Source: Antedon mediterranea (Eukaryota; Animalia; Echinodermata). Taken from it: 64,000 nucleotides of DNA. This document shows positions 382 to 60,042 of the stretch, piece by piece; the first letter of the stretch is position 1; each line of letters opens with the position of its first letter. A program made the translations under genes and the position numbers. Location: contig NC_092680.1 in assembly GCF_964355755.1 (NCBI RefSeq), forward strand, positions 15,323,045 through 15,387,044. Direction: 5' to 3'. The notes under the pieces are model-generated. The model saw nothing but the letters and a program-made list of their open reading frames with translations. It had not been told where the DNA came from and did not search any database.

Positions 382-3300
382 GTGTGATATTAGGACACGA
401 AACGGATGACAATGACTTGTACAAGAATATATTTAAGGACGCTGTAAACATTGTCAACAGGAATTCTACATTCCTTTCTGGCCAGCATCAAATGTTACTC
501 ATCGACCATGTTTTATATGCCAACTATGTTTATCCAGCATTACAAGCAGGTATGACATCATCCTATTTATTATCACTAACACTCATTTATTTGTCATGAT
601 ACTTTAATTCTTTGTATTCGTCATTGATATTGTTTATATTTGCATTATTTATACGTGTCAGCCACGTGTCAGTCGCACACCATATTCACATATCTTCACT
701 TGTCCTCATTCTTTTTTTATTTATCCTAATTTTCCATTTTCTTTCTTTATTCCCCTCTTTCTCTTCTTCGTTCCTCTCTTTCTCTTCTTCGTTCCTCTCT
801 TTCTCTTCTTCGTTCCTCTCTTTCTCTTCTTCGTTCCTCTCTTTCTCTTCTTCCAATTCATCTTCTTCAGTGTTCATCTTAATTCTCCTCCTCTTTCTGT
901 TTTCCGTACTCTTTTTATCCTTTCCGCTTCATTTCACACTCTTTATTTCATCCTCTTCCTCTAGCTTTTCATAACAATACCATTCTTTTTTCCCTCTTCC
1001 TCTTTTCTCTCTAATGCTATTCATCTTCTTACTTTTCCTCCCTTTTACCCTCTTCATTTTTCATCCTTATCTTTCTTCTATAATTTCTTATAAATATTGA
1101 AATTACATTTATCAACAGTTTGCAATACCATGGTGCAAACACAGCGAGTGTCGTCACTGATACTGCCAGAAGATATTTGTCCCATGTGTGGCGATGTCGC
1201 AGCTATGGCTAGCCATGCGACAAGTCCAGTGTTCAGTCTAGATCCGGGTAGTTTGAAGTCTGGTTCAGTGGCTTTCAAGATGCACCCTTCTCCAGAGGAT
1301 ATGAGCGAATTTTTTCTCGACATGCTCGTCTATTTCAACTGGAGAAATTTTATGATTATTTATGACACCGACCAAAGTAAGTTAGATAGATTTAAGATAT
1401 CTAGTTTATACTAGGCATAAATTAAATACACACGGAACTGGCCTTAAGTACAACACTTAAAGTCAGCAAAAATACCAATATGGTATGCGAGCTCTTTCAA
1501 TAATTTCTTTCAGAGTTATTAGATTAGTTAACTGAGCTGAATTCTACAGTTCAGAACGACAACTGTAACTATTATACTTGCAATACTTTTTCACAGTTTA
1601 CGCTAATCTGGAGGACGTCATAAGTGCTGGAAACATTTATAAGTGGAACATAACTCTGCGAAAGTACGATAATAACTTCGATCGTATCGTAGAATTCATC
1701 AAGATTGAGGAAATTCGGAACATATTTCTGTATACGTCGACAGAAAAGACTACCCGGAGAATAATGGAAATGGTACGGTAATGTGACTATTATTTAAACA
1801 ATAATCACAATAAACACGGTTGATGTTGTTGTTGCATGGTGTCCTTTAATGTATGTAGTATACAATTTCTTTTAAATGCTAAAGTGGGCGTCTACTGAAT
1901 AAATATCTATGTGCATATAACCTGTAACTACTTGAACACTACCGTCATTCTCGCTTACAATAATAACATTAATTATTATTATGCCAGTTATCGGGTTTGT
2001 ATATTACATAACGGTAACATTAGGCATACACATTTTCTGTAAAAAAAGAAGATGACATAACCAATGAACCAATCAACATTTAAACGGTATTAAGGGCTTA
2101 GTTTGAGAATCAGTGCGTTTAAGTATTATGCCTACATATTATTCATTTCATATTCGTAGGGGCTTGACGAAGGCGTGGTTAGTGACCAACACCATTGGAT
2201 TGTGGGAAATCTGGTAAGTATTGTACTGTAAATGTAGAACTACGTATATTAATTGTCGATAATGATTATCTGATTAACTTTTTTCTTCTTTTTACTTGAA
2301 AATACATCCGTCTCTTGTTTTATTTTAGGACGTCTATTTAGATCGTAGTTTTATGGAAGAATTAGAAGTAAACCGTGCGTACATGACAAGATTTAAAATG
2401 AACTATACGACACAGTGGCAGTACTCTTATCCGAGCTCTCCCGATCGCCGTCTGATAGATTGGCCTTTACGTGAGCGTCTTAGCTTTGACGCAGTGCTTA
2501 CAATTGCGCACGGAATGCGCAGATACAGAGAACGCGTGCGTGAAGAGGGTCGCATTGAAGACATCAATATATTACCAGGTGATACTATGATGAATTCATG
2601 TCCAATCAACAGTGATACTCCAACCCGTGCTCTTTGGAATGACGACTTGACTTACGTAAGTAATTGTTGTAGATGTTGTAAAATATCATGATTTTAACCA
2701 AATGAAATATGTAGGCATTTTTTCCGTAAATAAACGTAGGCCTACGGTATTATTCGTTTTTTATTGTTTAGGTAATGACTACAATTATAATACCTTTAAT
2801 AAAATTAAACAACAAATAGTGCAAGGACAGCAGTTCCAGTTGCTGCTTTTGCATATTGACAGTAAATGAACTGTAAAGCAATTTCTTATGAATAACTTTT
2901 TTTCAGTACAATTTTGAGGGACTCACTGGTAACGTAGCGTTCAACCCAAATGGAGATCGTGTGAATTACACAATAATGATATACAGCGGACAGGGCGAAA
3001 CCTTTGACACAGTTGTAAGTCAGTAACGTATTAGAACAAAATATGTATGCGGAGTGTAGAAACAAAATTGTTTTGTACATAATAGATTTTTATGTATCGT
3101 ACTAAAGATTGGTTGCCACTGGAGATGAAACGCAAGGATGTAAAGGCAACGTAAGCGAGTTGACCAATCAGAAGCTTTGGATTATTCAAACTTTCGATTT
3201 ACATTGGTCAACACGCTTGCGTTGCGTCATTGCGCCCTTGTCCAATGTAAACCAATCTTAATCCTAATAAACTAGTTTAAAGGTAAAGGTAAAGGTATTC

Positions 3301-6300
3301 ATATTTGTCCTCAAGCTTAACTGGAAACTGAGGAAATTCGGATTAGGCCCTCCACGGACCCACGGCAGCCAGCAGTGCAGCGCCTACCAGATCAGCACAC
3401 TGGGAGACGATCCCCTACTCTTTTCGAATAGTGTACCAAGTTCTTTAACGTGCACTGTTAAGTACACGGGACCAACGGCTTTACATCCCATCCGAAGGAC
3501 GAGGCAATGAGAGTAAAGCGCCTTGCCTAAGGATGCAATTAGTATGGTAACCTCGAACCCATGTCTATCACATGCTAGTCCGATATTACCATTACACCAT
3601 CACTCTCCAGTATATACAGCACCCGCCGCGATTTCTAGACGATCTCCCATCCAGAACGCAACCAGGCCCAACGTTGCTTAACTTCGGTGATCTGACGAGA
3701 ACCGGTGTTTCAACGCAGTAAAAAATAGTCGTACTTCTAATTACCGTGTTTTTAACGTCATTTGTTTTAACTGATATTGTAAGGATGGTTATTACTCATG
3801 AAATAAATCTTTGTGTTTATGTATTTCAAAACACTTTTTTTAGCGTGGTGAGTGGTCGCAAAATCCACTACATTGGGAAAGCCGATACAACATCGAGTGG
3901 CGCAATGAGGGACGTTTAAACGTAACCAAGTACGTACTTGGGCTAGAGAGACGTCTTAAAGTGGTTTCAATTCTGGTAAGTCTAATAATAATTACTTTGT
4001 CTATCACAAGAAGCTCGCAGTGGAATCTGAGACAAGTCGCGATGTTGTTTGTACTGGCTTGTTCTATATCCTATATACTGCATATCAATATATTGTTTCG
4101 TGTTAATAGAATTTAGCATTTATGATGGTGATACTGTAACATGTACTCTAGTAATTGTGATGCCGAAGAAAACTTATTGAGATTTTCAGTATAGATATAC
4201 ATAGCGTATTTTTCAGCATCTTTACATGGATACACTGACTCACCCACTCGCTTTTTCATCAAATACTCAGGAACTGTACTAAAATAACAATTACTTTTGG
4301 AATATTGATCGTATAACATTTTATAAGACTATGGTAATTATATTGTCTCTAGAACAGACTCTAGTCAACTAGTTATTCTTGTTATTTTTAATAACATTGA
4401 CAATGACGTATTAATATTGACGTATTAATATTGTCTATTTTTCAGCAAGCTCCGTTCTTGATGTACAGAGATAAAGTTGATCGTTATCGAGGTAATGCCC
4501 GATTTAGAGGCTACATCATGGATCTGCTGGAGGAGATTGCCCGTGTCGTAAAGGGTATCAATTTTGAGTACGAGGTTGAGTTGGTTGCAGATGGAAAATA
4601 CGGTCGAAGAGATGAGTACAGCAATGAATGGGACGGACTGATTGGAGAGCTTGTTCGTAGAGTAAGTCAGAAATGGATTTCAAGTGATTCCCATTTACTT
4701 GTTTCATAGGCCTACTAAATATTTAATTAGTTGTGTCATAACTTAACATAACATAAGTTTGCGAAACTGTATATTATACAATAACAAATTGAATATAACG
4801 ATCGATTCTTCATTTTGTAGTGGTAAAAGACAAATAAAAATAGGTTTTGTAAATATCAGAGACAGATACAAAAGTATTGTATCGTTCTATCTCAGAATTA
4901 AGTTTAATACAATGTAAAAAAGTGTGCACTCAATTTTATTGCCAGCATTGTTTGTAAAAAAAAAACTGTCTCGTTTGTAGGCGCGCCTAAATGTCGTGGC
5001 GTTATGTTTACTATTAATCACAGAAGATTTACTATTCTTGTAAATTTGATTTCATTTACTTTTGTATGACCCGTCGACAAGTTTACTAGTGAGGGACCTT
5101 CTTTTGCAATCATATTTATTGTTATATAGGCCTATTGTAATTTTTTTTGGGAAATATTTTATATAATATTTGATTGTTCTTGCAGAAGGCTGATATTGCA
5201 GCTGGACCGGTTTCAATAACGTCAGAACGTGACGCAGCCGTAGACTTCAGTTATCCATTCATGCATAGCGGTCTTCAGATTCTCATCAAACACCCGAATC
5301 ATGTGCTGGATGACCCCTTTGCGTTCATGTATCCTTTTGGAATTGAAGTCTGGTTCTTGAATGCCATATGTTTCTTGATGGTAAGCGCTCTTTTATGGGT
5401 CATCAATTCGTTTAATCCATATGAATGGAAGGCATCAGTTGAACGACACGAAACCTTCGGCGAAAACATTGACAACTTCAGTTTCAAAAATTCTCTCTGG
5501 TTCTCTGCTTCTACGCTTGTGTTCCAAAGTTACGATGCATCACCAAGATCAACGGCTGGCAGAGTCATAGCAGGATTCTGGTGGGTGTTTGTGGTCATTA
5601 TGGTGTTCTTGTATTTGACAAACCTGACATTTTGGCTGACAGCGTCTAAGCGTCTTGCAACGATTCGTTCTGCAGAAGATCTACTAGATCAATATGAAAT
5701 TAAATATGGCGTCGTTGATGAAGGTTCTGTGTATTACTTCTTGAAGAACTCATCAAACCCTGATTTTCAACAAATGTACAGCACTGTTGAAAACACTATT
5801 CCGAAGCCAACCGTGGCTAACGTTAGTGAAGGTGTTAAAAAGGTTCGCGAATCAAATGGAGACTTTGCGTTCATTGACGAAACTGGAATTCTAAGATATC
5901 AAGCCGATCAGGCCGAACCTTGTGATTTATACGTTACAGGTGGGTTTATTTCAAGGAACAGTTACGGCCTAGCTGTTCAGAAAGACTCGCCTCTTCGTGA
6001 CCAACTGTCGTTTGCTATTGAAACCCTGCGTGACACGCGTTCACTGGAGCATCTCGAACGTCAGTGGTGGCAGTGGGATAGTAAGTGTGGTAATTTGACA
6101 ACGTGGGAGAAACAAGGTATTTACTCTCTTACTAGTGTTGATCTTATGGGAGTTTATATTCTCTTGATAATCGGATGTATTGCAGCAGGAGTAGTCTTCT
6201 TAATAGAATGTATATGTACCGGTAAGGATGTAGATCAAAGAAGGGAAAGAGCTCCTGCGCGTAGGGATGCGCGTAGGGATGATAACAGAGGACCGACTTC

Positions 6301-6373
6301 GACTACTGCTGTTGGCGGAGGAACCCCTATTCAGCCGCTTCCAGGTCAGACCCATCACCAACAGTGGATTTAG
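382..6373 (+). CDS. Divergent ionotropic glutamate receptor, cluster gene 1 (5' partial; signal-peptide exon lies upstream of the window)
   Basis: GT-AG exons 382-549, 1119-1376, 1597-1772, 2160-2213, 2329-2655, 2907-3014, 3844-3975, 4446-4661, 5186-6373 join in frame. Motifs: ATD (YFNWRNFMIIYD, FEGLTGNVAFN), S1 (DGKYG..WDGLIGELV, ADIAAGPVSITSERDAAVDFSYPF), M1, pore loop SLWFSASTLVFQSYDASPRS, M3, S2 (YGLAVQKDSPLRD), M4. Confidence 0.93.
700..1078 (+). repeat. Polypyrimidine low-complexity tract with a 21-bp tandem repeat (CTCTTTCTCTTCTTCGTTCCT x ~4.5, ~756-852)
   Basis: Directly visible in gene 1 intron 550-1118; source of the spurious F/S-rich and E/K-rich ORFs. Confidence 0.9.
3105..3260. 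mobile_element. Degenerate PIF/Harbinger-like MITE (same family as 28028 and 61536)
   Basis: Imperfect TIR AAAGATTGGTTGCCACTGGA...TCCAATGTAAACCAATCTT; internal ACGCAAG/TGACCAATCA/CGCTTGCGTTGCG motifs shared with 61536-61702. Confidence 0.65.
3279..3720 (-). mobile_element. SINE with 5S rRNA-derived head, tRNA-like segment, Deu/Nin-like core and (ACCTTT)3 tail
   Basis: Minus strand: 5S-like 3720-3615; tRNA A/B-box-like 3609-3545 (GATGGTGTAATGG...GGGTTCGAG); core CCTTCGGATGGGATGTAAAGCCGTTGGTCCC...CACGTTAAAGAAC...CACTATTCGAAAAGAGTAGGGG; tail seen as AAAGGT x3 on + at 3279-3296. Confidence 0.8.
3615..3720 (-). pseudogene. 5S rRNA-derived sequence (SINE head, not a functional rRNA gene)
   Basis: Reverse complement contains CACCGGTTCTCGTCAGATCACCGAAGTTAAGCAACGTTGGGCCTGGTT...GGATGGGAGATCG, matching metazoan 5S rRNA. 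The 5' end is truncated and there is no oligo-T terminator. Confidence 0.85.
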
Positions 6374-8065: not shown

Positions 8066-8596
8066 TTAGTGGGGGACTGGCTCTTTGTTAAGCTCCACCA
8101 CCCTATTATAGGACTGCGTTCCTTTATACATGCCACGTTCTTCCCATATTTTGTTTCTTTTCTTCAGCACAGCCGGCCTTGAATGGTACATCAATGTTTC
8201 CATTCTGGATGACCACCTGGACGTTTAGTTTGGTGTAAGGAGCAACATTCGGCGGCAAAGTAACATTAAATTCTTCAGACTTGGTATTCTCCAAACCTTG
8301 ATTTTCGCCAACAGAGAACGTGTTTTCAACGCTCATTGTGATTTCACCATTAGCAATAATCGGCACACCTGTCGAGTACGTAGATGATACAGTTTGTGAA
8401 AGGACATTGTCCCAATGCCACTCGTAGGTTTTAGGTTTGGATACAGAAAGAGATCGTTCGCCTGTAGGTGTCTGGACACTGGAGCTGATTGACTTGTTGA
8501 TTACAACTTGGTCAAACATGCTTTCAGGGGTCGATTGTATAGTAAAGCAGCAGGTATGTCAAATTCCATGCTGATGATCTCTGTATGGAATTTCGG
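8066..8596 (-). pseudogene. Natterin/aerolysin (ETX/MTX2)-like pore-forming domain, frameshifted pseudogene exon
   Basis: After an AG acceptor at 8598-8597: PKFHTEIISMEFDIPAA, frameshift near 8540, then QSTPESMFDQVVIN...TYEWHWDN..STGVPIIANGEITMSVENTFSVG...NVAPYTKLNVQVVIQNGNIDVPFKA, frameshift near 8172, then VLKKRNKIWEERGMYKGTQSYN...stop 8068-8066. The Ser/Thr-rich beta hairpin and the VPF..GxYxG pattern fit the aerolysin fold. Confidence 0.75.
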
Positions 8597-16600: not shown

Positions 16601-19600
16601 AAAAAACAAAAAATGTGTTTTTACTACATCTCCTTATTTAATTATACATTTTCTGACGTTAGAAAAAACAAAGCTAATTACTGATAACTTATATCTAAGT
16701 ATAAATTATCCCTTTATACGTTTGCAGTTAGTATAATTATGAAAATGATATTATTAATAATTTATCTACCTTTAAAATTGTTTTTGCAATCAATTTGTTC
16801 AAACTTAATTTATAAAAAAGTGACGCTATACGGTAGATTTTCTTTTATATATTACACTACAACATTACTTTTCAGTATAACTTTGAAGGGCTGACAGGAA
16901 ATATTGCCTTTAATGACGTTGGTGATAGAGTAAACTATTCGATCATGGTGCACGCTGGTATCGGGCGGACGTTGGATCAACTGGCAAGTACTCTTTTTAA
17001 ATTTATTTTTTAAACCTGTTTTCCACTAGGAAAATTTGTTTGCGCGAATCCAACGTTTTGCAGAGAAAAACAAATCGAGTCACAGGTCTGCTGAGCTTTT
17101 CTATTTGCAAGAGTGGTCATAAACGTGTTTCCAGCTCAGTTCCCGAGCTCACATTGGTTGCACAATGTTTCGCTTTGTTTCGCGTTTTAACTGGTATCGT
17201 AATTTCGCTGAAGCAACTAGAATTCGTCGTAGAGAGGGATTTGGAAGATGAAAACATAAATATGCATGCGTATAAAGCTGACGCTTTCGATTGGCGCGAA
17301 TAGACTCAGCTAGTGAATAGGCTTTACGCATTTAATGTAGGTCGGAGCATTATTTGATTTTGTTATTGATTTTATTTTTTGCAATAAACTATTTAATTTC
17401 TTTATTAAACATTGTAACACTGTGACTTTCGCACATAGTTTAAAATGTCGGTTAATTAGACATTTAAAAAAATCATTGATGTAACTTAATGCCACGTAGT
17501 TGACCCTTGACCCTGTCGCTAGTGACCATAACGATCACCTTTGAATGATAAATTGATAATAAGCTAACTTGTCTTTAACTATGTATTTTTTTATATCAGG
17601 TTGGAGAATGGGCAGAAAATCCTAATCACTGGGAAGATAGGTATAAACTGAAATGGGAAAGCCATGGACGATTTAATACGACCCGGTATGAACAAGGTGG
17701 AAGACGAAAGTTGAAAGTTGTATCGATCAAAGTATGTTGATAATTATACCTTGTTACGTAATTCAGTCATGCTGTACCCATCCAGAGGCTACACTAAACT
17801 AAATATAAATTTCCTTTATGGTATGTTGCCACTTACGCTCGTCGTTATCTCCAGCTCAGTTGAATAACAATAAGTGGCCTCCGCCGGTGGTTTATATGTG
17901 TAAGACTTGTTACTTAGCATGTTATCCTTACTTACTATTGAGATTGCTCTGTTTTAAACAACTATTTATATAACACATAAATAAATTCTTGTCAATTGAT
18001 TGGACGATTAATGATCACATGACGTGCAATAGTACGTCCTATTTAACACAATGGTCTAATAATAGTTTTTTATACTTTTTTTTTCGCCCCGTGAAAATAG
18101 AATTTCATCTATCACCTCATACATTATTTGTACTATCTCACTCATAAATATTCATTATTTTTTTATAATATATCAATTTTTTTAGTATAACAAGTAGGCC
18201 TATTTTATGTAAAAATAATATGATTATGCCTATGAATGAGCAGGCCTAGTTATCTATTTCAGATTTAACGTCACGAAATCAATGCAGTTTCTGATTACAT
18301 ACGCTGTGTTTACCACTTTCATCCTAATATTATATAATAACTAACAATGTTCCTGTTTTTGTAGGTCTTTCATGTTTTTAATTACGGCATTTAATATCTT
18401 TTCTTATATGTGTTAAGGTTCCACCGTTTTTAATGGACAAAGATGATGTACTTTACAGAACAAAACGAGACACTAATTACGTAGATGAATACGATCGTGA
18501 TCGCTACAAAGGATTCATTGTTGACCTACTAGAAGAAATAAAAAATACGGCAAAAGGCATTGATTTTGATTACGATATCGAGCTGGTGCCGGACGGAAAA
18601 TTCGGTACAAGAAAACCATTTAGTAAAACATGGAACGGAATGATTGGCGAAGTATACAGAGGAGTAAGACCTTTTGTTTTTTTAAAAACCAAAGATAGGT
18701 TTAGCTAGTTTTAAAGATATGTATTCATGAAAAATGAAGTTTAATAAAAACAGATTTTGAATTGGTAATTTTGCAGTTTGCAAGTTAATCACTTCCGTAG
18801 AAAAAAAACCAAAAAAAACCCCAATAATTTCACTTTTTCAAAAGATAAAAAAAATGTTAAATTCAACCATTTACTTCCAGCCAGTTTGACTATTTGTTTG
18901 CGTTAAATCACTGTTTCTTCAGGTAAATCATTTTTTTCCGATCCAATTTTTGGTCAAAGTGAATAACTATTACGTGACATTAAACTTATAATATATAACA
19001 ATATATCTTTAAATGACAATATTTTGCTTCTTATGACTTACTGGTATACCTATTAACAAACATTCTATTCAGAATTTAAAACTATTTAAGACATAATTCG
19101 GAACATGATTATTTAATTATAGTTGAAGTAAAATAGCTCACTTATGCCACATAAAATATCAGTTTCTGCTAATGAAGGACGGCTATTCTGAATATTAACT
19201 AATGTATTAAATAAAGATACAATCCTTTTCAAAAATCAACAACCATATCGCTGGTATTCATAACGGAATACAACAGTAATTCAATTACTTTCCACACTGT
19301 AATATATTTATCGAATCATGGAATCATGTTTCTGTAAATATCTGAGCATTTTTTTGTTATCTCAAGAGATCGATAAAATAAGTTAAATTCAGTATAATTT
19401 ACGTACCGAAAATTCGAGCACTTAAGTACCTCTGTGAGATTTGTAGGCTACTTTTGAAGATCTTCTGGTGAAATAAAAAACCATTTTGAAAAATCATATT
19501 CACAGGTGTTATTAAAATATGACATCGATTCATGTTACTGCAGAGTGCATGTATTTATTTTATATTACTTTAGTTCCTATTATAATAGAAGTTTCTGCCC

Positions 19601-36512: not shown

Positions 36513-39500
36513 TTACAAATATTCCGAAGCTCCGTGACTAGTAGGTTGTCCTGAGTTCCTGTAGGGGTCGTATTGTGGAGCACCTTGAGGATCGTCATTT
36601 CGTTCTCTTAACGTCGTCTGAAACATAGTTGGGCATAGCAGATATGCTACAAGATCGATAAAAAGCATTGTCAATGTACAACCAATACCAATCAGAAGAA
36701 GATAATAAGCTCCCTGTAAGTCTACCAAAGTAAGCGACCAAAGTCCTTCTCTTTCCCAGAAAGACACACCACTGCATTTACCCTCTCTGTATAACCACTT
36801 ACTTTCCAGATCGTCAATGGTACCGTTTGATTTTAACATATTGATAGCATACGAGAGTTGGTCCCTTACGGGTGAGCCACTTTTTGTAGCCATAGCAAAG
36901 GCGAACTTATCCAAGGTATGTTCACCAATATGAACATCACATGGCTTATTTCTTGTGAAAAATTTCAGTACATTGTGGTCTTCGACAAGGCTGTAATCAC
37001 CATCTAACTGACGAACACGTTCAATACCATCTTGGATGTTTCGAACGATGGGACTAGGTTGAGTGGTTGCTACCATGTTGAAGAGTGCTCTGTTCGAAGA
37101 TGCACCTGATGCCTTCAAGTAAGAATATACAGGCGCGTCTTGCACAAGACCTACATCAATCTCCACTTTCTGGTTAAGTTCATGAACGCTTCGGATGTGT
37201 GAAAACTGTTTGTTGAATACTAAAAACGATGAAAGATGCATGCCGTAGAGAAAAACTGTTATCAATGCTAACATCCACCAGAATGCTGCCAAAACGCGTC
37301 CGGCATGTGATCTTGGCGAGGCGTCATAACTCTGCAGGAATACTGTGCTGACTGCGAACCAGATTGAGTTACGAATGTTGAAGTTATCTGCGTTGATTTC
37401 ATATGATTTACCATCTTGCTCAATAACCGTTCTCCATTCATTCGGATTGTAATGGTTGTAGAGGAAAAGTAGACCAGCAACAAAGAACATAGAAAAGAGA
37501 GTGATGAACCAAACTTCAACGCCAAGCGGGTACATAACATTGAAGGAGTAGTCATGAATATTATTAGGATGTTTTACTAGAAGGTGAATCTTTCCTTTCA
37601 AATAAACATTTGTGAAGTCAATATCAGCTTCTCTTTCGTTAGTCTTAACTAGTGGTCCGGCAGCCGCATCTGCTTCCTAACATGAAGAAAGAAAAAAATA
37701 TATATAATTATATAAAAACAAAGCATTTTGAATTAATAATACATGGTCAAGTGAAGGATACTATCAGGACAATTGATAGCGAACTTACCCCTTCCAAAAC
37801 CTCTTTCATCATTCCATTCCATTCCCCAGTTACAATGTCTTTTGTTCCGTAGTTTCGTTCAGCGTCGCCAAACACCTGTAGACGGTAGTCTATGTCAATG
37901 TTCAGAGAACGCTGCAGTACATCTTGGATGTATAACATGAGATCAGGGAGGAAGCCCTCATATCGATCGTTCCCGGTGTACTGTGAAACAAACGATTGCT
38001 GCTCGAAATTTTTCCTCTCTTCGTCAGTCATGTATTCTTCCTTGTTTTTAGTCATTACGTACGGAGCAACCTACATAAATCAAGGAAGATACATGTCAGC
38101 AACTAGTGTATTTGACTATCATATTAGTGATTATTATTATATAGATACATTTATGTATAATTATTGAGTGTTTATGTCCATAATCGAATAACAACGCATA
38201 CAAAGTATACTATTGACATTTTAACAGCATCGTTAAAGTTCTGTTTATTTTATCAAACTTTTTGTGACAGAAAATGTGATGTGCCCAATAATGGACATGA
38301 TGATGTCATATCACTACAACATTCACTACCATATTTGAACACATCACACTTTTTTGGTCAATTAGACAAAGCTCAGTTTACAAAGTACTGTTACCCAGTT
38401 ACCCTACTCTGTATTTCAATGAAATGGAAAGAAAATTATTACTGAACGTTTCCTCACCTCAACCATTGAAATAACAAGGTGATCGTCTTCAGCTTGGAAA
38501 TAGGGATTCATCCTAAGTCGCTGATTAGAAAACCTGTCCGTTGCCCGTTTGAAGCGATTGTATGGATCGTAGTCGGGATTTTGAAGCCACTCACCTCGCT
38601 AGAATAAAAACAAAATGTAATTGCATGAAGAATATCCACAATTGCTATTATCTTGATAAAATCCTATGTTAAAAAATCAAACTACATAAATGCATAATTA
38701 CCCAAAAATGGAGAGTATCTCCTACGCCACTGGTGATGGATATCCTATAGTTTTTTCTACTTCCTTGCTCGTCGAATGCTACACGACCAGACATTCCTTT
38801 AAAATCAACCTGAAAATAATGTAATCGCTTAAGTTTTGTACTTTGTGTCCAGTACGGTGATAATATCTAATCGGACGATTTTGAAAACCACCATGAATTA
38901 AAAATCTCAAACATATAATTTAAAACCAAACCAGATAGAGCACAATGGAATCAGATGCTGATTTTAGGCGATTGTTGCCGACGCAAAGTCTTCTCCTAAA
39001 CAAATTGGGAGACCTGTCTCCTCCATCACTCAAATTAACCGCGCAGTAGGTAGTTTACAAACCATCGTACATACCTTGCTAAAGTAATCCATCAGAACTG
39101 AACTTTCCTCTTCTGAATCACACCGTTTCATGTTCACACGTACGTTATTGCTCTCGTCTACAAATGGACTGCCATTATCGAATCCTCCATTGTCTTGTCT
39201 GCATAAGAAATCACGATATTAAAATGTATAGGACAATTACTGAAGACAATATAGATAAGCAAAACGTTCAAGAAATTAGCCAGAGAATTTAAATATTGAT
39301 AACCGACTTAAATTAATGATTTGTATAACAGTTTGAATAGGGTGTATGAACGTACCCGAACATCTTCAAAGCATGACCCGTGGCAAGAGCGGAGTCAAAA
39401 GCCAATCGCTGTCGGAATTCGTATTTTGTACGCTGTTTGGTAGTGGTTGTTGAAAGACTACCGTCCGTCTCATTCATATTGAACCTTGTGATAAATGCAT

Positions 39501-45500: not shown

Positions 45501-45878
45501 TTCAAATATACGCAAACATAATTAGTAATTATATTACTTATTTTATGAGCAAAAAAAGATTAATTGTTACAGAACAAGCTAACACACGCATAACATTGGA
45601 TACACAACATTAACCTTAGTTAATTATATTTTAGTATCGACATATTATTCTGTAAGCGACTGGTATATCAAATGTATGTTACCATCCACCAACCATCAAT
45701 ACTTACTTGTAATGACAATGATAAAACCAATGAATTACATTTCATTAAAAAAAATTAATAATCTATTGGTACGTAAAAAAAATAGAAAATGAAACTTACC
45801 CATTTTCAACTCGAGAGCTAAAGCCACTTGTTGGACTCCGATGGAGAGAAGCAACACAAGCGCCACTTTCATCGCCAT
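36513..45878 (-). CDS. Divergent ionotropic glutamate receptor, cluster gene 4 (~915 aa, 11 exons)
   Basis: Minus-strand exons 45878-45800 (signal peptide MAMKVALVLLLSIGVQQVALA), 41977-41810, 41451-41200, 40766-40582, 40047-39994, 39546-39356, 39198-39075, 38809-38702, 38598-38458, 38070-37789, 37676-36513. Total 2748 nt in frame. Confidence 0.92.
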
Positions 45879-47480: not shown

Positions 47481-47660
47481 TAAGGTAATCTAACAACAGA
47501 ACGTTGAGCTCGCCTTGCCTAGGAACTCGTAACAGTCCTAAATACTAACTGAATTGAAAATAAGTTTTCGTAGTGGAACTGATCGTGTCGCAGCCACAGA
47601 TAAACTATTTGATTTCCGAAGCTCAGCATCCTGATGTTAGATTGTCATGTGGATACTAAT
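47481..47660. repeat. Dispersed repeat copy in the proximal 3' UTR of gene 5 (other copies ~49621-49795 and ~40385-40480)
   Basis: Shared blocks AAGGTAATCTAA.AACAG...GCTCG.CTTGCC...AACTCGTAACAGT and GTCGCAGCCACA[G/T]ATAAA...TCCGAAGC.CA.CATCCTG. Confidence 0.75.
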
Positions 47661-47679
47661 ACTGATCATGTAAAATTTA

Positions 47680-50600
47680 CTATAACCATTCTTTTAGTTT
47701 TGTTGTTGTTGCTTCTGTTTGCTCGTACACATTTGTTTCGTTACTACGCCCATTTCCTACGGAGTGACCTCTGCCATTAAATGGCTGCCTTTCTCTTGAT
47801 GGAATTATTGAAAAATGGCGTGGATAATGAAGCAACATATAACACATTAGTTCCAAGAAGAAAAACAGAAGAGAAAAAGCTATGCCAATAAACAAAATAT
47901 AATAAACACCCTTCAGATCTACAATAGTTAATGAGTACAATCCCTGATTGTTCCAGATAATAAATTTGTCATCACACTCACTTTTGGGTTGAAGCCACTT
48001 CGCCTTTAATTCTTCTAATACATTCCTTTCTCTTAATAATCTTATTGCGTATGATAGCTGATCTCGAAGTGGCGATCCTGACTGTACAGCTAATCCATAT
48101 CTTGATGTACCGATAGCCTGTGGTATAAGATAGACATTGCATGGTTCGTCTGTAATTGCGTTCAACATTAAAGCCGTGTCAGCTATAAATGCATACTTTC
48201 CATTGCTTTCACGAACCCTTTCGACACCACTTCCAACGTCACTGACGTAGGGATGCTCTATACTTGTGAACATGTACTCAAACATAGAATGGAGATCTCC
48301 AGTTTGAGAATTTTCTAGCATTGCATACGTAGATCCGTCCTCTACACAGCCATAAACAATATCTGTCTGTCTGAGAAGGTCTCGCGCTGTCTGATAAAAC
48401 GCTTGCTGTTTATTAACGCGCATGTAGTCTGAAAGATTTGCAAAATACGATGTTAACATTATGAGCGAAAACAACCACCACACTGCTGCTCCAATGCGAC
48501 CGGCATGCGAACGGGGAGATACGTCATAGCTTTGAAGAAATGCACTTGATGTTAAAAACCATATACAGTTCTTAAAATTAAAATTTTCCTCGTTTATTGG
48601 ATGAACTTGCTCTTTTCTGGCTGCGTTACTCCACTCTAATGGGCTATTTCGGTTGATGATCCACAGTAAAGAAGCTACAAGAAATAATGCTACTAGGTTG
48701 GCACACCATACTTCAGTGCCAAGTGGGAAGGCAAAACTAAAGTCTCGAGTATTGTATACGTAACTGGGATGCTTTACTAGTATTTGAACTGGACTTTCGC
48801 CAAAAGGTATTGTAAAATCAATTACTTCTTCGCGTTTATCAGTAATAATTAACGGGCCAGCAGCAACGTCAATTTCCTGCACAAAAATATAAAATAGTAA
48901 TATTACCTATGAAAACAATACATACCGGTAACAATAATGATAACAGAAATTTATATAACGCTGACCATATATTTTGTTTTTTTTTGCTCAAGAGATGGAA
49001 CTTTCAATTAAGGTTGAAAAAAGCGGGCGTAGAGCGGCATAGTGTGCTATGAGATTACATAGATATATTGTATTGTGAAAATAAACTGACTAAATAGTCA
49101 GCAAAAGCCATTAATTGATATACACAGCGTTGTTTATTGTGAGCCAATGAAGATTCTTAAGGATAGGAGTGGTGCCGGTAATTATGATGACAACGTGTGA
49201 AGGAATATGAAAACAGTAATACTACTAGTATATGCTTAAAGAGAAATACTGTAATACTAACCCCGTTGACTACTACGCTAGCCCACTCATTACTGTCCTC
49301 GTCACCATAACCGCCATTGTATACATTAAGTTCATAGTCAAAGTCAATGCCCTCAGTTTGTAATACATTACGCATTTCTGCCATGAGATCTGGAATATAT
49401 CCTTCATACCGTGCATTACCTTCCAGAAATTCGTTGTTTTCGTCATGTTCAATTTCCATCATAAATGGTGAAATCTAAGAAAAATCAAGAAACTAGAATT
49501 CTAGCAATTTCATAAAATATAGACAAGGAATATAACGCAAACCTTCATCCACATAAAACGCCAAAGAAAAAACCCGTTTTGACGAACTTGCAAGCACCCT
49601 ACATACAGGCCCAATGTTACCAAGGTAATCTAATAACAGGACAGTAAGCTCGTCTTGCCAAGATAGAAACTCGTAACAGTTCTTTGATCTTATGTCTGGC
49701 TGCGAAAAATACCAACAGTACTGTACCATGTACATATTCTACGCGGTGCGCGGTGTCTGGAAAACTGATCGCGTCGCAGCCACATATAAACAGTTGCTGT
49801 TAGATTGCTTTGCTTTGACGAACTTGCAAACATCCTACATAAGGCTCAAATAAGTTACCAGCTAGTCCAGATGTTTAGTCAGAATGGGAAGACCGATAAT
49901 TAGTGCAATTTTACAATAATGACTTACCATGACGCTACCGATGGAGACTTGGTCTCCAGCTGTCCACATAGAGTTAATGTTTAGGTGGACAACTTCAGCA
50001 TCCAATTCATCGTTATACAATTTCTCCCATTGATGACGATTTTGAATCCATTCTCCACGCTATAAATTTAATGATTAACAATAACACATGAATGTAAATT
50101 TTCATATCACCATGTCATTATTTACTAACGAATGTCAAAAATAAGATATAGACCCCCAGATTACATCCCTAACGCAAGTGTTTGTTTCTTTGTTTTGATT
50201 GATTTTTTGATTTGAACAAACAAAATATCTTCTACTGACGATAAAATCGCAAGACAGTTTTATCCTTAAAATAGACTGAAAAAAGCATAGGCGCCCTCAT
50301 ACTTCTGCAAAATAATGCTACGGTTAAAGGTTAAGTTGAGCACTTTTTAATCTTAAGCCTGTCCGGTTCTCTAGCTCTGAATCCGCCACTGTTTAGGATA
50401 AACATTCAGGTTTTTGTATCAGACTAAACCAGAAAATAACAATCAATCTTACCTGAAAATCCATGCTACCTCCTTTGCCGCTGAAGATTGATATCGAATA
50501 ATTTATACGTTTTCCCATCTCGTTGAAAGCAACGTTTCCCGTAAGGCCTTGCAGTTGCAACTATATAATAAAAGCATCATCCAAGTTAAGTCATGAATTT

Positions 50601-53600
50601 ATTCAAATATTTACACTATATTTATTGTATTTACATAATGTCTTATGTAACGAAGTTAACCTCACCACTTTCAAATACGACATGAGAATAGAAAAACTAT
50701 CAATAATTTGAAATTCAGTTGGTAAAATGAATGTTATCTAAAATCATATGTTATGGTTGTATACAAGTTGCAAAATAGGAAATGAATGTTTTTTTTAAAA
50801 ATATAATAGTATGAATAATTATTTATGTTTATGCTTACGTCTTTCATAAGATGATCTGCGAGTGGATTTCTAGGCATTTTCCAGCCTTCTTCTTCTTCAG
50901 CACATTTTGGCATTATGGTATTTCCAGTTAGGCCTATTGACGAATGAGGAGAGCCTTTCATTTCATTACTGGAAAATAGTAAACCAACAAATATAAATGA
51001 AAGGGAGTGAAATTATTGGCATCATTACTGGAAAATAGTAAACCAATATAAATGAAACTGTACCGCATGCAATTATTTGCTTCAATAAGAAAATGCAATA
51101 TAAAGAGCTTCGATATGCAACGAGCACCGACCTAACTATGTCAGGTCAATTGTCGGTCGTCGCCTGGACCTAGAAATCGGTGGAGGAGCGAGGATTCACG
51201 TGCCAATATCCCCGCATACGCAGAAATGAATGACGTAAATTGAAAATGGTGTTCATTATGTTCCAACATGTATGTTGTAGGCCTTTAATATACACATAAT
51301 AAAGTAGGCCTACCGGTTTAAAGTTAGAAACAAGAAAAATACACTTTAAACTACTCTTTTGGTTTGAAAGCCGTACCACGCTACATACAAAGAACAAACC
51401 GGTGGTGAGTTTTTTATTTGGTCACGTTTTGGTGATCAATCTCGAGTCACCAAGTGAACTGACAACGAATTCGTTAAATATTTATGTTACAATGTTTTTT
51501 CTACATTACCTGTAACTCTCTACAGCTTTCGAAAGAGCAAACATTGTATCAAATACAAGCTTTTGTCGGAACTTCCATTCTCCATGAGACTCTAAATTGT
51601 ACGTTGAATAAGCCACACTCGTATCAGCAGTCATTTTGAAACTAGTTACGTAGGCGTCGATTTCCAGAAGACTGTCAATATGTGTGCTATTGTAATAAAC
51701 GTCTGGATTTCCAATGATCCAATGATAATCAGTTTCCATCAGTCCATAGTCAATTGACTAAGAAATAAAGATAAAAATTAGAATAGCCTTGAAATAAGAA
51801 AAACATAATAGTATATCTATAAATAAATAAAATAACAGCAGAAAACTTGGTTACTTCATTGTTTTAATCACTACACATTTGTTTCGTACGACCAGCATGT
51901 AGCTGGCCGCACTCTTCAGGTGAAATGTAAAACATAAGTATATCTATAGTATGTCTAAGTTTCCTAGTTATGAGGGGTTAGAGTGTGAGCAATGCGCACT
52001 CCGCGGCAATGGTTACACTCATCGGGAATTTGCGTGATGAGTACCCCGGTATAAATAATAATTTGATATGGAGAATTGAAATGTTCAAACATTTTATAAT
52101 CAGCCGTTCATCAACGAATAATGTTGAGATTCTTAATTGAAATTTAGAGTAACACGTACGCTCATCAATGTGTTTATCAGTACTTCTTCTGTTCCGCAGT
52201 AAATCAGAATATTTCTAAAGTTTCCTTCAAGAACTATCTCCTCCCACGATTCCGTATCGACATCAACAAATTGTAAGTTCCAGTTATGTTCAGATGCCTT
52301 ATTTTGAAACGGTTGCAGATTCCTATATACTAAATAAAGAGATAATAAAGATAATTATGTATAGTCTGGCATGGCATGATTAGATACTACAGCAATATTT
52401 CTTCTTACGGTGGTTCAACAAACACGGAATAGCCGCATTTTAAAACTTAAAGATATATTGTCCCCCTAAAAAAATTTTTTTTTAGAATTTTTTTGTTGAA
52501 TATGTTATTTTAATGTCACATAATAGTTATTCACTCTCACAAAAAATTGGGTCTGAAAAAAATTTATTTACCTGAGAAAAATGTGATTTAAAGCAAAAAA
52601 TTGTCAAATTGTCTGGAAGACAATGAGTTTTTTCGGTAATTTAACAGTTTATTTTGTCTTTTTATAGGTGAAATGATTTTTTTCCCCCGTTTTTTTTCTT
52701 ATGGAAGTGAACAACTTCATTAATACTGCAAAATGGCCTATTCAAAGTCCGATTTTAAAAATCTTTATTTTTCATGATTTTGGGGGACAATACATCTTTA
52801 AGTTTTGTGCAATCATGTGTGTGATAATTCTATATATTAATTTTTGTTTATGTCTTATATTTATCTGGGTTTTTTTTTCGAGTAATATTTGCCAATCTTT
52901 AAGAAGAATTTATATTCTTATTTATTATGATATATGGACAAACAAGGCATATTTCAGTATAATTCATTAAATGCTATTAGTACACAATAGCATGCGATAT
53001 ACTGGACAGATAATGACATACCGGTAACGTCATTAACGAGAATTGTTGGTGTACGTATTGGTCGTGGGCCTTTACTCAAGATGTTACTGCTCTCTTGTGG
53101 ACAGCCACGTCTGTGACCAGGCTACAACTTACCCATATGGGTGTCAAAAAGTACCAAAAGCTCTTTCCATTTGTAGTGAGAGATAACATCAAAGAACAGC
53201 TCATTCATGTCTTCAGGAGAAGGATGCATGTTGAATACGTGTGATCCAAGACTACCATGGTCCATACTGAAGATTGGAGTTGATCCCTCAACCAATGTAG
53301 CTGCTATGTCTAAACAATGTGTACATATGTCTTCACTTACAAGAAGCGCTGATGGTCTATTGTTTTTAATCCATTGACAAACTATAACAAAATAATATAG
53401 AATAAAACTGACTCATACATTGATGTTACAAACTGAAGGATCTTATAATGTCCGCAGTATTTTCATAAAAGAATGCATGTTTCCAGTTAACTTTAACTTT
53501 TACAAGTAGTAATTAAGTAGCATGTATCATATAATTTTGAATACATAACAAAAATTGTAAATTTACCAGAACTGGTTGCTTTCCAGTAATGTTCAAATTG

Positions 53601-56600
53601 AGCGATTTTGTAGTCTAATGTAAGTTTGTTTCCGTTAGCAGCAAGATCACGATCACTATGAGAGAGGGCGTTTGTCATGATAAAATAGTATTCGTCTTTG
53701 GTCGCCTCATCACCGAATATTTCACCTGTATATTAGAAATTAGTAATGTAAAAAAATATTTCATTACTTGTATTATGATACGTACACATGAAGTAATGTT
53801 AAGTAAGAAGCATTGGTCTGTAGATGTTTGTAGATATCTGCAATTTCCAAATTATGTAACGTAAACAATCACGACCAAACCACATTTTCCTGTGCAGTTT
53901 TGGTGGTCTATTCAAGCATCTGTGGTTATTAAGTGCTCGCTTTATAATTGCAATATTCAACCATTGCACCTCCGTGATTAAGTTGTTGAAAGACTGAGTT
54001 CAATCTTTTACATAAATAATGCTCATTTTATTGTATGTAACAACACTGGCCAAACCACAAGAACAGTGAATGAACGTTGTAAGTCAACGTGAACGTGGGA
54101 TTGAATGTAGGAAAAATAAAGTCAGTACAAATAGGACTAAAACGAACAAATTATCAACAAAGAGAGGATTGAATGTGATTTTTTTTATTTAGGCCTATTC
54201 TTGCTTTGTTTCTGATTGACATAATCAGTCACATAAGTATAATGTACGTACATTTAAATTTCTAGGCCTACAGTCTGATTATATAGAATTAGGTCGGTCT
54301 ACTAATTCACCCTTAATTAGTAGCATAGACTTGGAGTTGTTTCGAAAAGTAAAGATTTCATGCGGAATTACTTTTATCATCATCATCATTCATAACGATA
54401 ATAACATAGCCATGATACTCTTCAATGGTTAGATAGGCCTACAAGACACCAGGACGAATTCCCTTGAGTACTACGACAGGATTATGTCCCTTGTGTCGAA
54501 CATTAATTCTGCTCATAGTCGGCTATTCTGTTCACATTAAGATTAATACTTGGTTCAGTAGATGTAGGTCGTGCACATATAAATTTCACCTAGACCACAA
54601 TGTTATCATTGCGCATGCGTAGATTTGGTTAAACTTCGCGTGCCTAAATGCAGTAAAGCTATAAACATTTTTTTTTGTGCAATTACAGCCTTGCGTGTAT
54701 AGGTTCATAGTTAACAATAACATAGAAAAAGAGGACAATTAAAGATGGTGAATGATACATATACTGTTGTCCTTGTCTTTATCAAAAAAGAAGAAAATAC
54801 ATTTATTGGCCGATACTACCCGGGGTTTATGAAACCGTGGTACGCTAATGACCTGGGTAGAGGGTGCAAGGCAAGGCATATGCCGTCATTGGTTTATATA
54901 AACTACAATAGGCCTTAGTCCATCCGTTCCCATCGCAGACGTCTTGCAAATGAAATTTTGTTTGTTTTGTTTTCCTCTGTAGTTTCAGTATATTTTTAAT
55001 TGTTAATAGGGAGGTTTCGCAACCTTACGAATACGATAACGAAAACGGATACGTCATACATTTGTAAAACTTTTGAGCTGATCCCCATTTCATATTCGTA
55101 AAGCGTATTCGTGTTGACGAATATCACCAGTCGTATTCGTAACTATAAACGAGTATAGTTTTTGATCTATTTTGCACATTTTGCATTTGAATTAGGAATG
55201 ATTCATGATTATAATATAATTATAGATTTATTGAAAGTAATTTACTAAAGTAATTTACTAAAATGCCAGGTCAATTTAGATAAATAGCAGTTTTTAAAGT
55301 CCTCACTCGCTTTGATGTTACGCTAGGCCTAGGCAGCCAAGCATCAAGCAACACGTACCTGCGCTTCGCTCAAATTTACCGCAGTCATATTTTGGACGCG
55401 CCTCGATATTTCGTTGCCATGCGAAACAGATTTTTTATGGCTTACGAAAACGAATACGTGTGCGTGACGTATCCGTTCGTTATCGTATTCGTAAGATTGC
55501 GAAACCTCCCTAATAACCATGAGCCACAATGTATTTTACTATAGTGTAAATGTGACGTGTCGCAGGAGTAGTCTCTCCTCATCAATCGGCAATGATCCTT
55601 ATTATCACAATAAGTAATGTACGGTGCTGTGCCATACTACAATTTTAACTGATTTAACCTTCGTGTATAATGATACTTTACAGTATTCTATTCCCGACAC
55701 ACAGCCTTATCATAGCATTTATCACAGAAAACATGACACACAATATTATTTATTTCACTTCTTTGTATTATTGAAATTCAATAATATATACGTTAAGTTT
55801 AGGATGCTCAGCGTAAGACTGAAATGTTCGAGGGCGATTTGTCAAATTACAATAATATATGCGTTAAGCGTACTTATACTTATTTCTAATGTTTGCAATC
55901 TACGACATATGCATAAAAACCGAGTCAAAGCATAGTAAATGCATAAATCCCAGGCCGCATGAGGTTCAAATATGGGCACCATCGATCTTGAATACTACTA
56001 TTACTACCGGGCAATCGTCAAGTTCAACAAGTACTGCTATTTAATGTGCCAACAAGCCTTAAAACAAGTACGCAGCATCCTTATTTTGTTCTTAATTTTA
56101 GCGCAGGCCAACGAGTTGATATAACTCAATGTTGTAATTACGGGACCCATCTGAGAAGAAGTGGTGGACACCTGTTTAAAGGCTAGACGGAAGGAATTTC
56201 AAGAAAACCCAGTCCAACTTAACATCTACATAGTAATGTAATCTAGTTCAACAATTACAGTGTGATACAACCATAGGGAGCGGTCTCTGATACGAATTAT
56301 CAAAGGAAATAATTTTATCATTAAGACATTTATATGATAACGTTTATGATCGTGGAATGCATGTAGAAATATAGCCGGATGCAAACCTGTTCATATCAAA
56401 AGTAGTTTCTCTACTGGGAAGGTTAAAGTTTACACTGTCCCAGTTACAATGACGTCACGTTGTGTCGTGCGTCCCCCATTAAGCTGGAACATGTGGGTGG
56501 GGACTGACCTGGAAAATTACTGTTCATGCGTGTTACCTTTCAAATGTCTCCCGTAGATAAAACCACCAGTTAAACGTTAATACTTACAATAATTATATTT

Positions 56601-57441
56601 TAGAATTTAGTTTCTGCGTTTTATTTTAAGAATTTATTTTTTCCGTTGTTCTTCTAAATTCACATATTCTTTTAAGTTTTGAACTTTGTTGGATACCTGT
56701 TTTATTCATTACCTTATATACCTAAACAATAGCAACTTTTTTTTAATGTGTTCCACTTTTAATTGTCCACTGTCTGTGTCTGAAGTTCAGAATTTCGTTT
56801 AAATTGTACGTATTTTTTCTCAAATAGTAACGATAGGAAATAGGCCTAGATGATTATTTTTTAAATTATAACATTGCATTCGTGACCTATATTCTTTCAT
56901 TAGCAAAATACACGTCATGTCCGAAAACAGTCAGTCCATGATACAGTAAAAAGTGGTGTTTGCTTCATAAGTTCGTCCTAGTGTCCAGCACATGGGCATA
57001 ATAATTAAGTCATTCTCAAACATGGATTTCGTTTTACAAATATACCGTAAAAGTTTTTTTTTAATCCCATGGGCTTCTTGTTAAGGATTTTCGGATGGGC
57101 TTTTCAAGATAGTCTTCTTTACGTGGTTTACTATTACTATCTCTTATTACTTATTAAGTAATTACTGCATGGCAAAATATACGAATATTAGTTAAAATAT
57201 ATAATACGCTAAATATACTAATTACTATTAACTAATATAATTTATAGGCTAAATATTCAAATGTTATTAGATTTATTAAAATTTATGATATGCTAAATTA
57301 CTATTTTATTATTTAGGCCTACTAGTTAACTAATTAGTTTGGAATGGTTTACTTACCAATCATCACGTTGATTCCTCTAGTAGGCCTAATTAGTTTGCAT
57401 AGGCTAGTAATACAAAAGACAAACAAGACATATCGAAACAT
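47680..57441 (-). CDS. Divergent ionotropic glutamate receptor, cluster gene 5 (~896 aa using the proximal first exon)
   Basis: Minus-strand exons 57441-57357 (signal-like MFRYVLFVFCITSLCKLIRPTRG), 53725-53567, 53381-53133, 52329-52160, 51757-51510, 50968-50839, 50560-50453, 50059-49928, 49474-49262, 48876-47680. Total 2691 nt in frame; M3 SYFANLSDY is the closest of the five to canonical. Confidence 0.9.
51868..51923 (-). ncRNA. Minimal type I hammerhead ribozyme motif (Penelope-associated type)
   Basis: Minus strand: UCAC-CUGAAGA-GUGCGGCCAGC-UACAU-GCUGGUCGUAC-GAAAC-AAAUGU-GUA-GUGA. Complete core, 11-bp stem II (two G-U pairs), 3-bp stem III, 4-bp stem I. Confidence 0.7.
52451..52797. mobile_element. 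Kolobok-like MITE
   Basis: TIR AGATATATTGTCCCCC / GGGGGACAATACATCT (1 mismatch) flanked by TTAA at 52447-52450 and 52798-52801. Confidence 0.85.
55007..55512. mobile_element. ~500-bp MITE with long TIRs (Harbinger/ISL2EU-like ends)
   Basis: TAGGGAGGTTTCGCAACCTTACGAATACGATAACGAAAACGGATACGTCA is mirrored by TGACGTATCCGTTCGTTATCGTATTCGTAAGATTGCGAAACCTCCCTA (~48 bp, few mismatches). Confidence 0.88.
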
Positions 57442-59289
57442 GCTTGAAATTACACTTTAATGAATGAATTCTAGACGAAATATTTGAAGGTAACTCTCTA
57501 AAAGCCATCTTAATTGAGACGACGAAAAGTATTAGCCAATGAAAACGTCCATTATGGTGACGTTTTCTCTAAACATTGAATAATAATTGCGTACAAGTTG
57601 AACTTCAGTTTCCTAGTACTTCAAAACAATTGAACTGTATCAATATCGTACATGATAATCGGACTCATCAGGGAAGAGGCAGATTACACTCTTCACTGAA
57701 TTCACCAACTTTTACATGTATTCTTCTAGTGATGAATATCGTCGTTTTACTTTAGGCAATTCTCTAAAACGCTCTCAAAGGAGATTAAATAAATGCACAA
57801 AATACCTTTTAAACCCTTTTGGAATGTAGCAATTTGTTCGGTCGGCCTAAAGCAGAAGATTATATATATATTTCACAGACCACCCGTATACATCTAATTA
57901 GGTATCTTTATTTTAAGAATCTAATATATCCATTAGAAAACTCCCATGGATGCAATTATTAAGACAACATCTATAGCCTAAATCAAACAACAATTAGTTT
58001 GTAAAATTAGGGTACAGCCTTTATATTATGGTGAAATTAGCTACAGTGGCTATACGTATTATATTGCTTATAGACATATATAGGGCCTAGGCTATATCCC
58101 CCCCCCCCCCACTGTTTTTTAAAGTCAGAAATTAGTGATAAGATAAACACAATTACTAAAACATTTTGTTGTTGGTCATTAGTAGATGGAATTTTACTTT
58201 AAATGTAAATTTACAACACTATCGTACTTTAAAGATATATTTAGTTATGACATTTCTATAAAATGTGCAAAAGTGAATACAGCATCTGCTGCATGTATGT
58301 ATGTTATTATTATTACGGGAATTGCTTTACATCTTCCTCATGTTTGATAAAAAATCTATGAATGATTACTCTAAAATGTGCAAGTATATTATTGTTGGCA
58401 TATTGGTGTAAAAAAGTCAGAGGTCAACGTGAACTCATCAGTTATGTCGTTGAAACTGATCATTAATTATCCACCAGTGACGTTGTCATCACTCTCGTTA
58501 ATCTATACACAGAACACAAATCATAGCTCGTTTACACTTAGTAATATAAACAATACAACGAACTGATACAAGATGTAGATAAAAGTTTCAAATGAATGGA
58601 AATGAAACAAGAATTATTTTTCAATACTGGTTTAAAAAAATAGGCATTCTGGTCAACATTGCAAATTATAATTAAAGGTAGGTCATCGGTACATTGTCTC
58701 ATTAATTGTGTATGCAGGATTCTTGTACGGTATCATGTCAAGCGATAACATACGGTGCAGTTTCGTGTCTGCATACGACAACGGACGAAACCATAGCATC
58801 TACCTCCAGATATACGGTAGTAGAAATCACCCGCCGCGTATGACCAACTACATTCTATTTAACAATTAGAATAAATGGTTGCTATCGCACAATATTACTA
58901 CATCTTTTATGAAGAAAAGTAGGCCTAGTCTAATTATCAGTAATACGATTATAGCCCAGACTTTTCACCTTTTCTACCGAATCAAATAACCACGTGGGTA
59001 TGGATAATAATGTGAAAGTTCCCACATTATCTGTTTTTTAAACTATGTGGGAATCGTCTATGAGGTTAATAAAATAGAGTTTTGTTAAAAAGGAAGTTTT
59101 TTTTTATTTGTAAAAAAAATAAAACCCCTTTAGAATTTTGGAATTTGAACCCTGGACTCACAGCATGTGTACCCTGACAGGTATTTACAGTCATACACCA
59201 ATTCGAAGACGGATTGAGAAAAGGTAGAAACCACTAGAGCTTTGGTAAGCAGACGCGGATATAAAAATCTTCAAAAAGGCGATAAGGAA

Positions 59290-59506
59290 GAAAAAATACT
59301 AATATTACAATATATAACTTAGAGCTCTATCCGAATCTATGGGAAAAGTCAAGAGACCAAAAAGACGACGACCCAAAACCACCTGGATAAAAATTATAAA
59401 AAATTATACGAAAAGAAAAATCCACAATTTTACCAATAATCGCTCTGATTGGAGAAGTCTTGGCGCGCTATGTCGCAAGACGTTTAACGTTCGTGATGAT
59501 GATGAG
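59290..59506 (+). mobile_element. Degenerate RTE-clade LINE 3' end
   Basis: GKVKRPKRRRPKTTWIKII...NNRSDWRSL resembles the RTE ORF C-terminus (GxRxRGRPxxxW...DRxxWR), followed by a (TGA)n tail. Confidence 0.55.
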
Positions 59507-59963
59507 TTATATAACTTCAGATTTTATTTAATTATTTAAACGTATTAAGGTTTATTACAAAATAACTGAACTGAAGAACTTTAATATTAAATATAATCAC
59601 CTACAATCATTTACAATCTAAATTTTCCTTTTGATTTTGGATAATTCAATAAAGCACACAGTTTAGTTCATCATTGATAGCAGCCGGATAATTAAAATTT
59701 CATCTAGCTAGTGAATATATCCAATTTTCAGCTTTGGAATAATATTATTCCTTTGTGTCGGACACCACTTTCTAAGAAGCATTACGTTTCATCTTCCACC
59801 GACCACGTCTTCATCTTCTCCATATTTCAAGACAGTTTCCTTCCCCCTTCCATATGCTCCTTTTCCGGACATATTTCGGCCTCATCACTCAACGAAATAA
59901 TTAATATTTAGACAGATTTTTACAAACATAAACCATCCATTGATATACATATTGTGTACTTAC

Positions 59964-60042
59964 CAATAGTGAAATGTCTTCCACCAGTAACAGAAATTAA
60001 ATTCCAAATAGTGAATAAAACAATAATCCCAGAGTACTGCAT
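59964..60042 (-). CDS. Second (distal) signal-peptide first exon, phase-compatible with gene 5 exon 2
   Basis: ATG at 60042; encodes MQYSGIIVLFTIWNLISVTGGRHFTI plus G|GTAAGT phase-1 donor, 79 nt. Length, phase and ending (hydrophobic-G|GTAAGT) match the first exons of genes 2-5. Confidence 0.75.

Follow-up and report, generated by a model that had tools for sequence, protein, structure and literature searches.

Gene content and architecture of the cluster

We analyzed a stretch of 64,000 nucleotides from contig NC_092680.1 of the crinoid Antedon mediterranea (referred to here as the window), in which five ionotropic glutamate receptor (iGluR) paralogs, G1 to G5, lie side by side, three on the plus strand and two on the minus strand. 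The explanation that best accounts for our results is that these genes form an old cluster of crinoid Phi (GluF) receptors acting as amino-acid-gated channels with a rebuilt gate, a reading to which we assign a probability of roughly 0.7. Gene models were built from five long frames of 387-411 codons, all of which matched the Lig_chan domain, with upstream exons being added from comparison of the window with itself. The features are as follows.

382..6373, plus strand: G1 iGluR, 9 exons in the window (382-549, 1119-1376, 1597-1772, 2160-2213, 2329-2655, 2907-3014, 3844-3975, 4446-4661, 5186-6373); first coding (signal) exon off the window; contained in database protein P0191
10669..21143, plus strand: G2 iGluR, 9 exons; letter-for-letter the same as P0013
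22578..31554, plus strand: G3 iGluR, 9 exons; letter-for-letter the same as P0009
36513..45878, minus strand: G4 iGluR, 11 exons; 100% identical to P0038
47680..57441, minus strand: G5 iGluR, 10 exons including a candidate first exon at 57441-57357; P0040 identical over residues 30-896
59964..60042, minus strand: alternative candidate for the first exon of G5, encoding a putative signal peptide and joining exon 2 in frame

Each gene thus equals or lies inside a database model labelled Antedon mediterranea, and all are already annotated as glutamate receptor-like. The models use canonical splice sites except for one GC donor, in a GC-AG intron of G2 (junction 16983/16984, plus strand, donor after 16983) where our model agrees with P0013, and none of the five contains an internal stop. 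For G5, two in-frame first exons resemble signal peptides (60042-59964 and 57441-57357, both minus strand), while the P0040 model of this gene begins at a short exon at 54393 (minus strand) and has no signal peptide, possibly reflecting alternative promoters or mis-annotation.

Pairwise identity among the five proteins is 29.5-47.9%. Six same-phase intron positions are common to all five genes (one being off by a single alignment column in G3), the signal-exon intron is common to all four genes having that exon in the window, and three further introns are common to subsets. While the amino-terminal domain (ATD) is intron-rich, the region from the end of S1 through the stop is encoded in all five genes by one exon of about 1.15-1.2 kb, possibly due to ancestral intron loss. 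All five database models carry the ATD, S1 and S2 plus channel Pfam domains above cut-off, in the iGluR architecture of ATD, S1, M1-M2-M3, S2 and M4. The initial annotation, which had described five intact paralogs with open frames, shared exon boundaries and a retained ATD, was accurate in these respects.

Among solved structures, the AMPA receptors GluA2 and GluA3 are closest, both in sequence (E 1.8e-92) and in fold (Foldseek E 1.3e-51), the latter being the match of an AlphaFold model of G3 (predicted local distance difference test, pLDDT, 70; predicted template modelling score, pTM, 0.47). Unlike AMPA receptors, to which identity is about 25%, the cluster genes have no glutamine at the Q/R site and no SYTANLAAF motif. 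Moreover, because a single exon spans the end of S1 to the tail, G1-G5 have no flip/flop exon pair.

Placement within the Phi class

Phi (GluF) was described as a class within the AMPA/kainate/delta/phi (AKDF) subfamily of iGluRs (Ramos-Vicente et al. 2018, PMC6307864) and later extended to molluscs and other lophotrochozoans (PMC8437780, PMC12226733). Database searches pointed to the echinoderm members of this class, as the best 19 of 35 matches show 43-58% identity and the 14 of them that are named are all from echinoderms, while the others fall to 25-38%. Additional members came from a profile search of 1.84 billion representatives. Published GluF names could be linked to database proteins over the N-terminal stretch that can be read in the alignment of that study (PMC6307864): the 90 residues readable for GluF_Apl are the start of P0002, GluF2_Spu matches P0194, and GluF1_Spu and GluF3_Spu resemble P0039 and P0012. 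All four echinoderm members of that study thereby map into the clade of G1-G5, two by identity and two by close orthologs.

Two trees were calculated, one with FastTree from 180 rows (P0034 and P0037 were left out as short, and P0038 and P0040 as duplicates) and one with IQ-TREE from 45 rows and 424 columns under LG+G4, including 40 selected database proteins. Both recovered a single echinoderm clade holding G1-G5 and the GluF-matched proteins (support of 1.0 and 100/100, respectively), separate from kainate, AMPA-like and delta-like rows. In the IQ-TREE analysis, this clade comprises 26 rows, including P0002 and P0194. Within it, G1-G3 group with GluF_Apl at 98/99 and G4 and G5 branch deeper, while four hemichordate proteins are nearest to the clade (90/93, not starred). 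We are highly confident in placing the crinoid genes G1-G5 within the echinoderm Phi clade already described.

The initial annotation had proposed a candidate lineage-specific family. Indeed, G2/G3 and G4/G5 form crinoid-only pairs among the sampled rows, as would be expected had an undescribed crinoid-only family arisen by local expansion. Nonetheless, the genes nest at 100/100 with the published GluF_Apl and GluF2_Spu, monophyly of the 11 crinoid rows was rejected in the approximately unbiased test (p-AU 0.0136, for a group chosen after the tree was seen and under a model without mixtures), and the motifs considered below are common to sea stars, urchins, brittle stars, a sea cucumber and hemichordates. 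A crinoid-only origin is thus refuted by our data and we consider it extremely improbable. At the class level, the genes fall among described proteins that already show these motifs. The cluster is real and was correctly seen, but its genes belong to a known echinoderm clade.

As the Phi study already reports that SYTANLAAF is degraded in some Phi proteins and that Q586 is absent in all (PMC6307864), the odd gate and pore are traits of the class and not of the cluster. Like the published Phi proteins, G1-G5 lack Q586, have a weakened SYTANLAAF and keep R485 and an acidic residue at 705. The study includes no crinoid among its 14 GluF rows, and sequences with fewer than four SYTANLAAF matches were dropped, a filter that would exclude G1, G3 and G4 (PMC6307864). 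No tie to the clade could be made for gKAR2 and GluR2 of Roberts 2018 (PMC6267866).

The title of Sania et al. 2021 (doi 10.1111/mec.16206, as cited in PMC10662023 and PMC11748453) announces an iGluR subfamily unique to echinoderms with a putative sensory role. The IQ-TREE analysis contains one such echinoderm-only clade with clustered genes, and this subfamily is very probably the clade of G1-G5. The subfamily was reportedly named GluH, claimed to be separate from Phi and to have arisen by tandem duplication, and is said to be expressed in tentacles. Literature searches on GluH and on crinoid glutamate receptors, in which most subscription journals fell outside the scope, returned nothing relevant.

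Pore and gate

Across the clade, the Q/R site is hydrophobic and M3 departs from the canonical sequence. The Q/R site holds F, F, L, L and L in G1 to G5 and L, F, M or W in all 33 clade rows, with Q in none, while the pore retains Q587 in 32 of these rows and D590 in 27. Matches to SYTANLAAF number 3, 4, 1, 3 and 5 of 9 in G1 to G5 and range from 1 to 5 across the 33 rows (4 in GluF_Apl), whereas 134 of 144 other rows keep 7-9. T617 is found in no clade row. Likewise, the alanine of the lurcher site, present in 132 of 144 other rows, is absent from all 33, being replaced mostly by F, P, Y or H. The same pore and gate pattern is seen in the four hemichordate rows.

Changes at the lurcher site of delta receptors produce constitutive current (PMC10861852, PMC12226733), and the complete loss of the alanine in the clade raises the possibility that at least some, and perhaps all, of the subunits form leak channels that stay open constitutively and are inhibited or modulated by ligand, in the manner of lurcher-mutant delta receptors. 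We regard this as doubtful, as the pore may be sealed again by the hydrophobic residues that replace T617 and occupy the Q/R site, and as the lurcher residue itself is highly variable among the paralogs.

Ligand pocket

Pocket positions, like those of the pore and gate, follow GluA2 numbering, taken in part from PMC6307864, with columns being mapped through the alignments. For each gene, the first group below ends in positions 480 and 485, the second gives positions 653/654/655, and the last residue is position 705.

G1: pocket P,S,R / G,S,V / E; gate LYLTNLTFW
G2: pocket P,T,R / G,S,T / E; gate LYISNLPFF
G3: pocket P,T,R / E,S,T / E; gate LLLSNAPWH
G4: pocket P,V,R / A,P,V / D; gate LYGMHLSSF
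G5: pocket P,I,R / G,S,T / D; gate SYFANLSDY

R485 and an acidic residue at 705 are thus present in all five genes; in the clade, R485 is found in 31 of 33 rows (the other two being gaps) and the acidic residue in 33 of 33. Variation is seen at position 480 (S, T, T, V and I in G1 to G5) and at 653/654/655 (GSV, GST, EST, APV and GST). Judged from these residues, the pocket is mostly canonical, with G4 being the sole strongly altered member. Of the earlier proposal that gate, filter and pocket had all diverged, the first two parts hold and the third is overstated.

Residues 653 and 655 have been used as a rule for ligand preference (PMC6307864). Applied to the cluster, it predicts a preference for glutamate in G2 and G5, possibly also in G3 (E653/T655), and for glycine or a small neutral amino acid in G1 (G653/V655). 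The rule offers no ligand for G4, which may be a modulatory partner. Amphioxus Phi proteins are often unable to bind amino acids (PMC6307864), whereas G1-G5 keep the residues that bind the ligand backbone.

Age and spread of the cluster

The clade has members among crinoids, asteroids, echinoids, ophiuroids and holothurians. In Anneissia, a second crinoid, five members are located on one 700,243-bp contig, while in Apostichopus both deep subclades are represented on one 402,471-bp scaffold with consecutive accessions (PIK48932 and PIK48933). For Patiria, S. purpuratus, Diadema setosum and Amphiura, proteins from the two subclades lie on contigs of matching size. From these contig and accession records, we infer an ancestral echinoderm gene cluster that is old and retained. 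Six family members were retrieved for Antedon mediterranea, five of which have one-to-one orthologs in Anneissia. The sixth, P0005, lies outside the window on a contig of the same size as that of the other five (22,273,604); it is orthologous to Anneissia P0008 and this isoform lacks the tail motif described below. Identity to the Anneissia orthologs is 87% and 95% for G1 (two partial models), 72% for G2, 77% for G3 and 65% for G5, while no ortholog of G4 was found among the Anneissia database proteins compared.

Local duplication and pocket variation are also features of the protostome ionotropic receptors (IRs). In that lineage, the co-receptors IR8a and IR25a retain the ATD and the tuning IRs have lost it. 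The genes considered here differ in being from deuterostomes, in having an ATD in every member, and in their few paralogs and stable orthology; IRs were absent from our trees. A chemosensory array resembling insect IRs, in which paralogs of the tube feet or pinnules would share a co-receptor and be tuned to amino acids in the water, would be compatible with Phi membership, and we consider it possible, if tentative. The variation at positions 480, 653 and 655 and the old, retained tandem duplication fit such an array, as does a citing passage reporting that echinoderm iGluRs found in tentacles were inferred to be chemosensory (PMC11748453). Yet six members, five of them one-to-one in a second crinoid, are unlike tuning receptors with fast turnover, while amphioxus Phi genes are enriched in the nerve cord (PMC6307864) and scallop GluF is ubiquitous (PMC8437780).

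Selection and expression

Paralog pairs differ with pN of 0.35-0.49 against a saturated pS of 0.71-0.84 (proportions of nonsynonymous and synonymous differences). As dS is saturated in 8 of 10 pairs, rough dN/dS values are available only for G1/G4 (~0.16) and G3/G5 (~0.34). The substitution pattern indicates purifying selection.

For expression, sequencing run X1, assumed to be of RNA and carrying allelic differences from the window, was compared with positions 41100-60500. In one contig, 41451 is joined directly to 41810, leaving out precisely the G4 intron that had been predicted at 41452-41809 and that has CT..AC ends, and a second halts at the G4 donor at 45800 and continues for 168 more letters, the size of exon 2. 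The four G4 coding differences among those listed are all synonymous (55 difference rows were unlisted). No G5 splice joint appears among the 15 rows listed, with 262 more being unlisted, and this is uninformative on G5 expression. Where it can be estimated, dN/dS is not near 1, and a spliced G4 transcript is seen if X1 is indeed RNA.

C-terminal tail and furin-type motifs

Of the 31 clade proteins that have a tail, 26 carry a C-terminal W-[I/L], a motif seen in none of 148 others. It is present in G1, G2, G3 and G5, while G4 ends in Y-L. We infer that this tail is a PDZ-type ligand, likely to bind a PDZ scaffold. Together with the hydrophobic filter and gate and the retained ATD, the conserved tail would fit non-conducting ligand-binding or scaffold proteins, similar to mammalian GluD. 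This is unlikely, since M1-M3 are as conserved between orthologs as the ligand-binding domain (LBD), for example with 103 of 119 residues for G3/P0014, and Q587 and D590 are largely kept.

LBD loop 1 carries an R-x-[K/R]-R motif in 10 of 29 clade rows, with both subclades represented, and in none of 139 others; in the ATD-LBD linker, it is also found in 3 of the 139 other rows. The cluster contains the following two cases.

18457..18468, plus strand: R-T-K-R furin-type motif in LBD loop 1 of G2 (residues 457-460); putative cleavage
38545..38556, minus strand: R-F-K-R furin-type motif in the ATD-LBD linker of G4 (residues 402-405); putative cleavage

These motifs would allow for echinoderm Phi proteins being protease-matured iGluRs, in which furin would cut LBD loop 1, G4 being cut instead at the ATD-LBD linker so that its ATD would be freed, and a gate without T617 and the lurcher alanine would give a tonic, amino-acid-modulated current, the receptors serving as heteromeric peripheral sensors that converge on the logic of insect IRs. 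We consider this improbable. G1, G3, G5 and GluF_Apl have no loop-1 motif, and the ortholog of G2 has no more of it than K-R. Moreover, the pattern was noticed post hoc and among related rows, such that the Fisher p of 1.7e-7 should not be taken as a test. No paper joining furin and iGluR loop 1 was found in the literature searched, which excluded most subscription journals.

Proposed mechanism

For the preferred reading of Phi receptors with a rebuilt gate, we propose that the subunits come together, probably in mixed tetramers, to form cation channels gated by amino acids. Clamshell closure would still pull M3, while loss of T617 and of the lurcher alanine would likely alter resting open probability and permeation. 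We favor this gated-channel mechanism by a little over even odds. Several points that weigh against it and against the placement should be considered. No current from any clade member is recorded in the literature examined, and the bulky hydrophobic residues at T617 and Q586, as well as the proline at gate position 7 of G2 and G3, could abolish conduction. The G3 model is weak at M2-M3, with pLDDT below 50 at 623-644 and 651-662. The hemichordate link reaches only 90/93, and the trees were calculated without amphioxus Phi, NMDA, epsilon or IR8a/IR25a sequences; amphioxus GluF motifs were not found in the proteins fetched.

The absence of the lurcher-site alanine, the W-[I/L] tail and the loop-1 furin motif are added here as further traits of the clade. 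These compact and intact paralogs, in which the lurcher site, T617 and the Q/R site are all naturally altered, offer a test of iGluR gating without SYTANLAAF, and the cluster bears on whether deuterostomes evolved iGluR-based chemosensation.

Other features of the window

Between G1 and G2, a 144-codon stop-to-stop frame (8127-8558, minus strand) shows sub-cut-off Pfam matches to ETX_MTX2 (E 6e-4) and aerolysin (E 1e-3) and is possibly an aerolysin-like exon or fragment. A 269-codon frame within a G2 intron (15228-16034, minus strand) has no Pfam match and resembles the part of a long interspersed nuclear element (LINE) that follows the reverse transcriptase. High-copy repeats lie at about 47570-47650, 49670-49760, 52450-52800 and 55000-55500, where contig depth is very high in all four sequencing runs.

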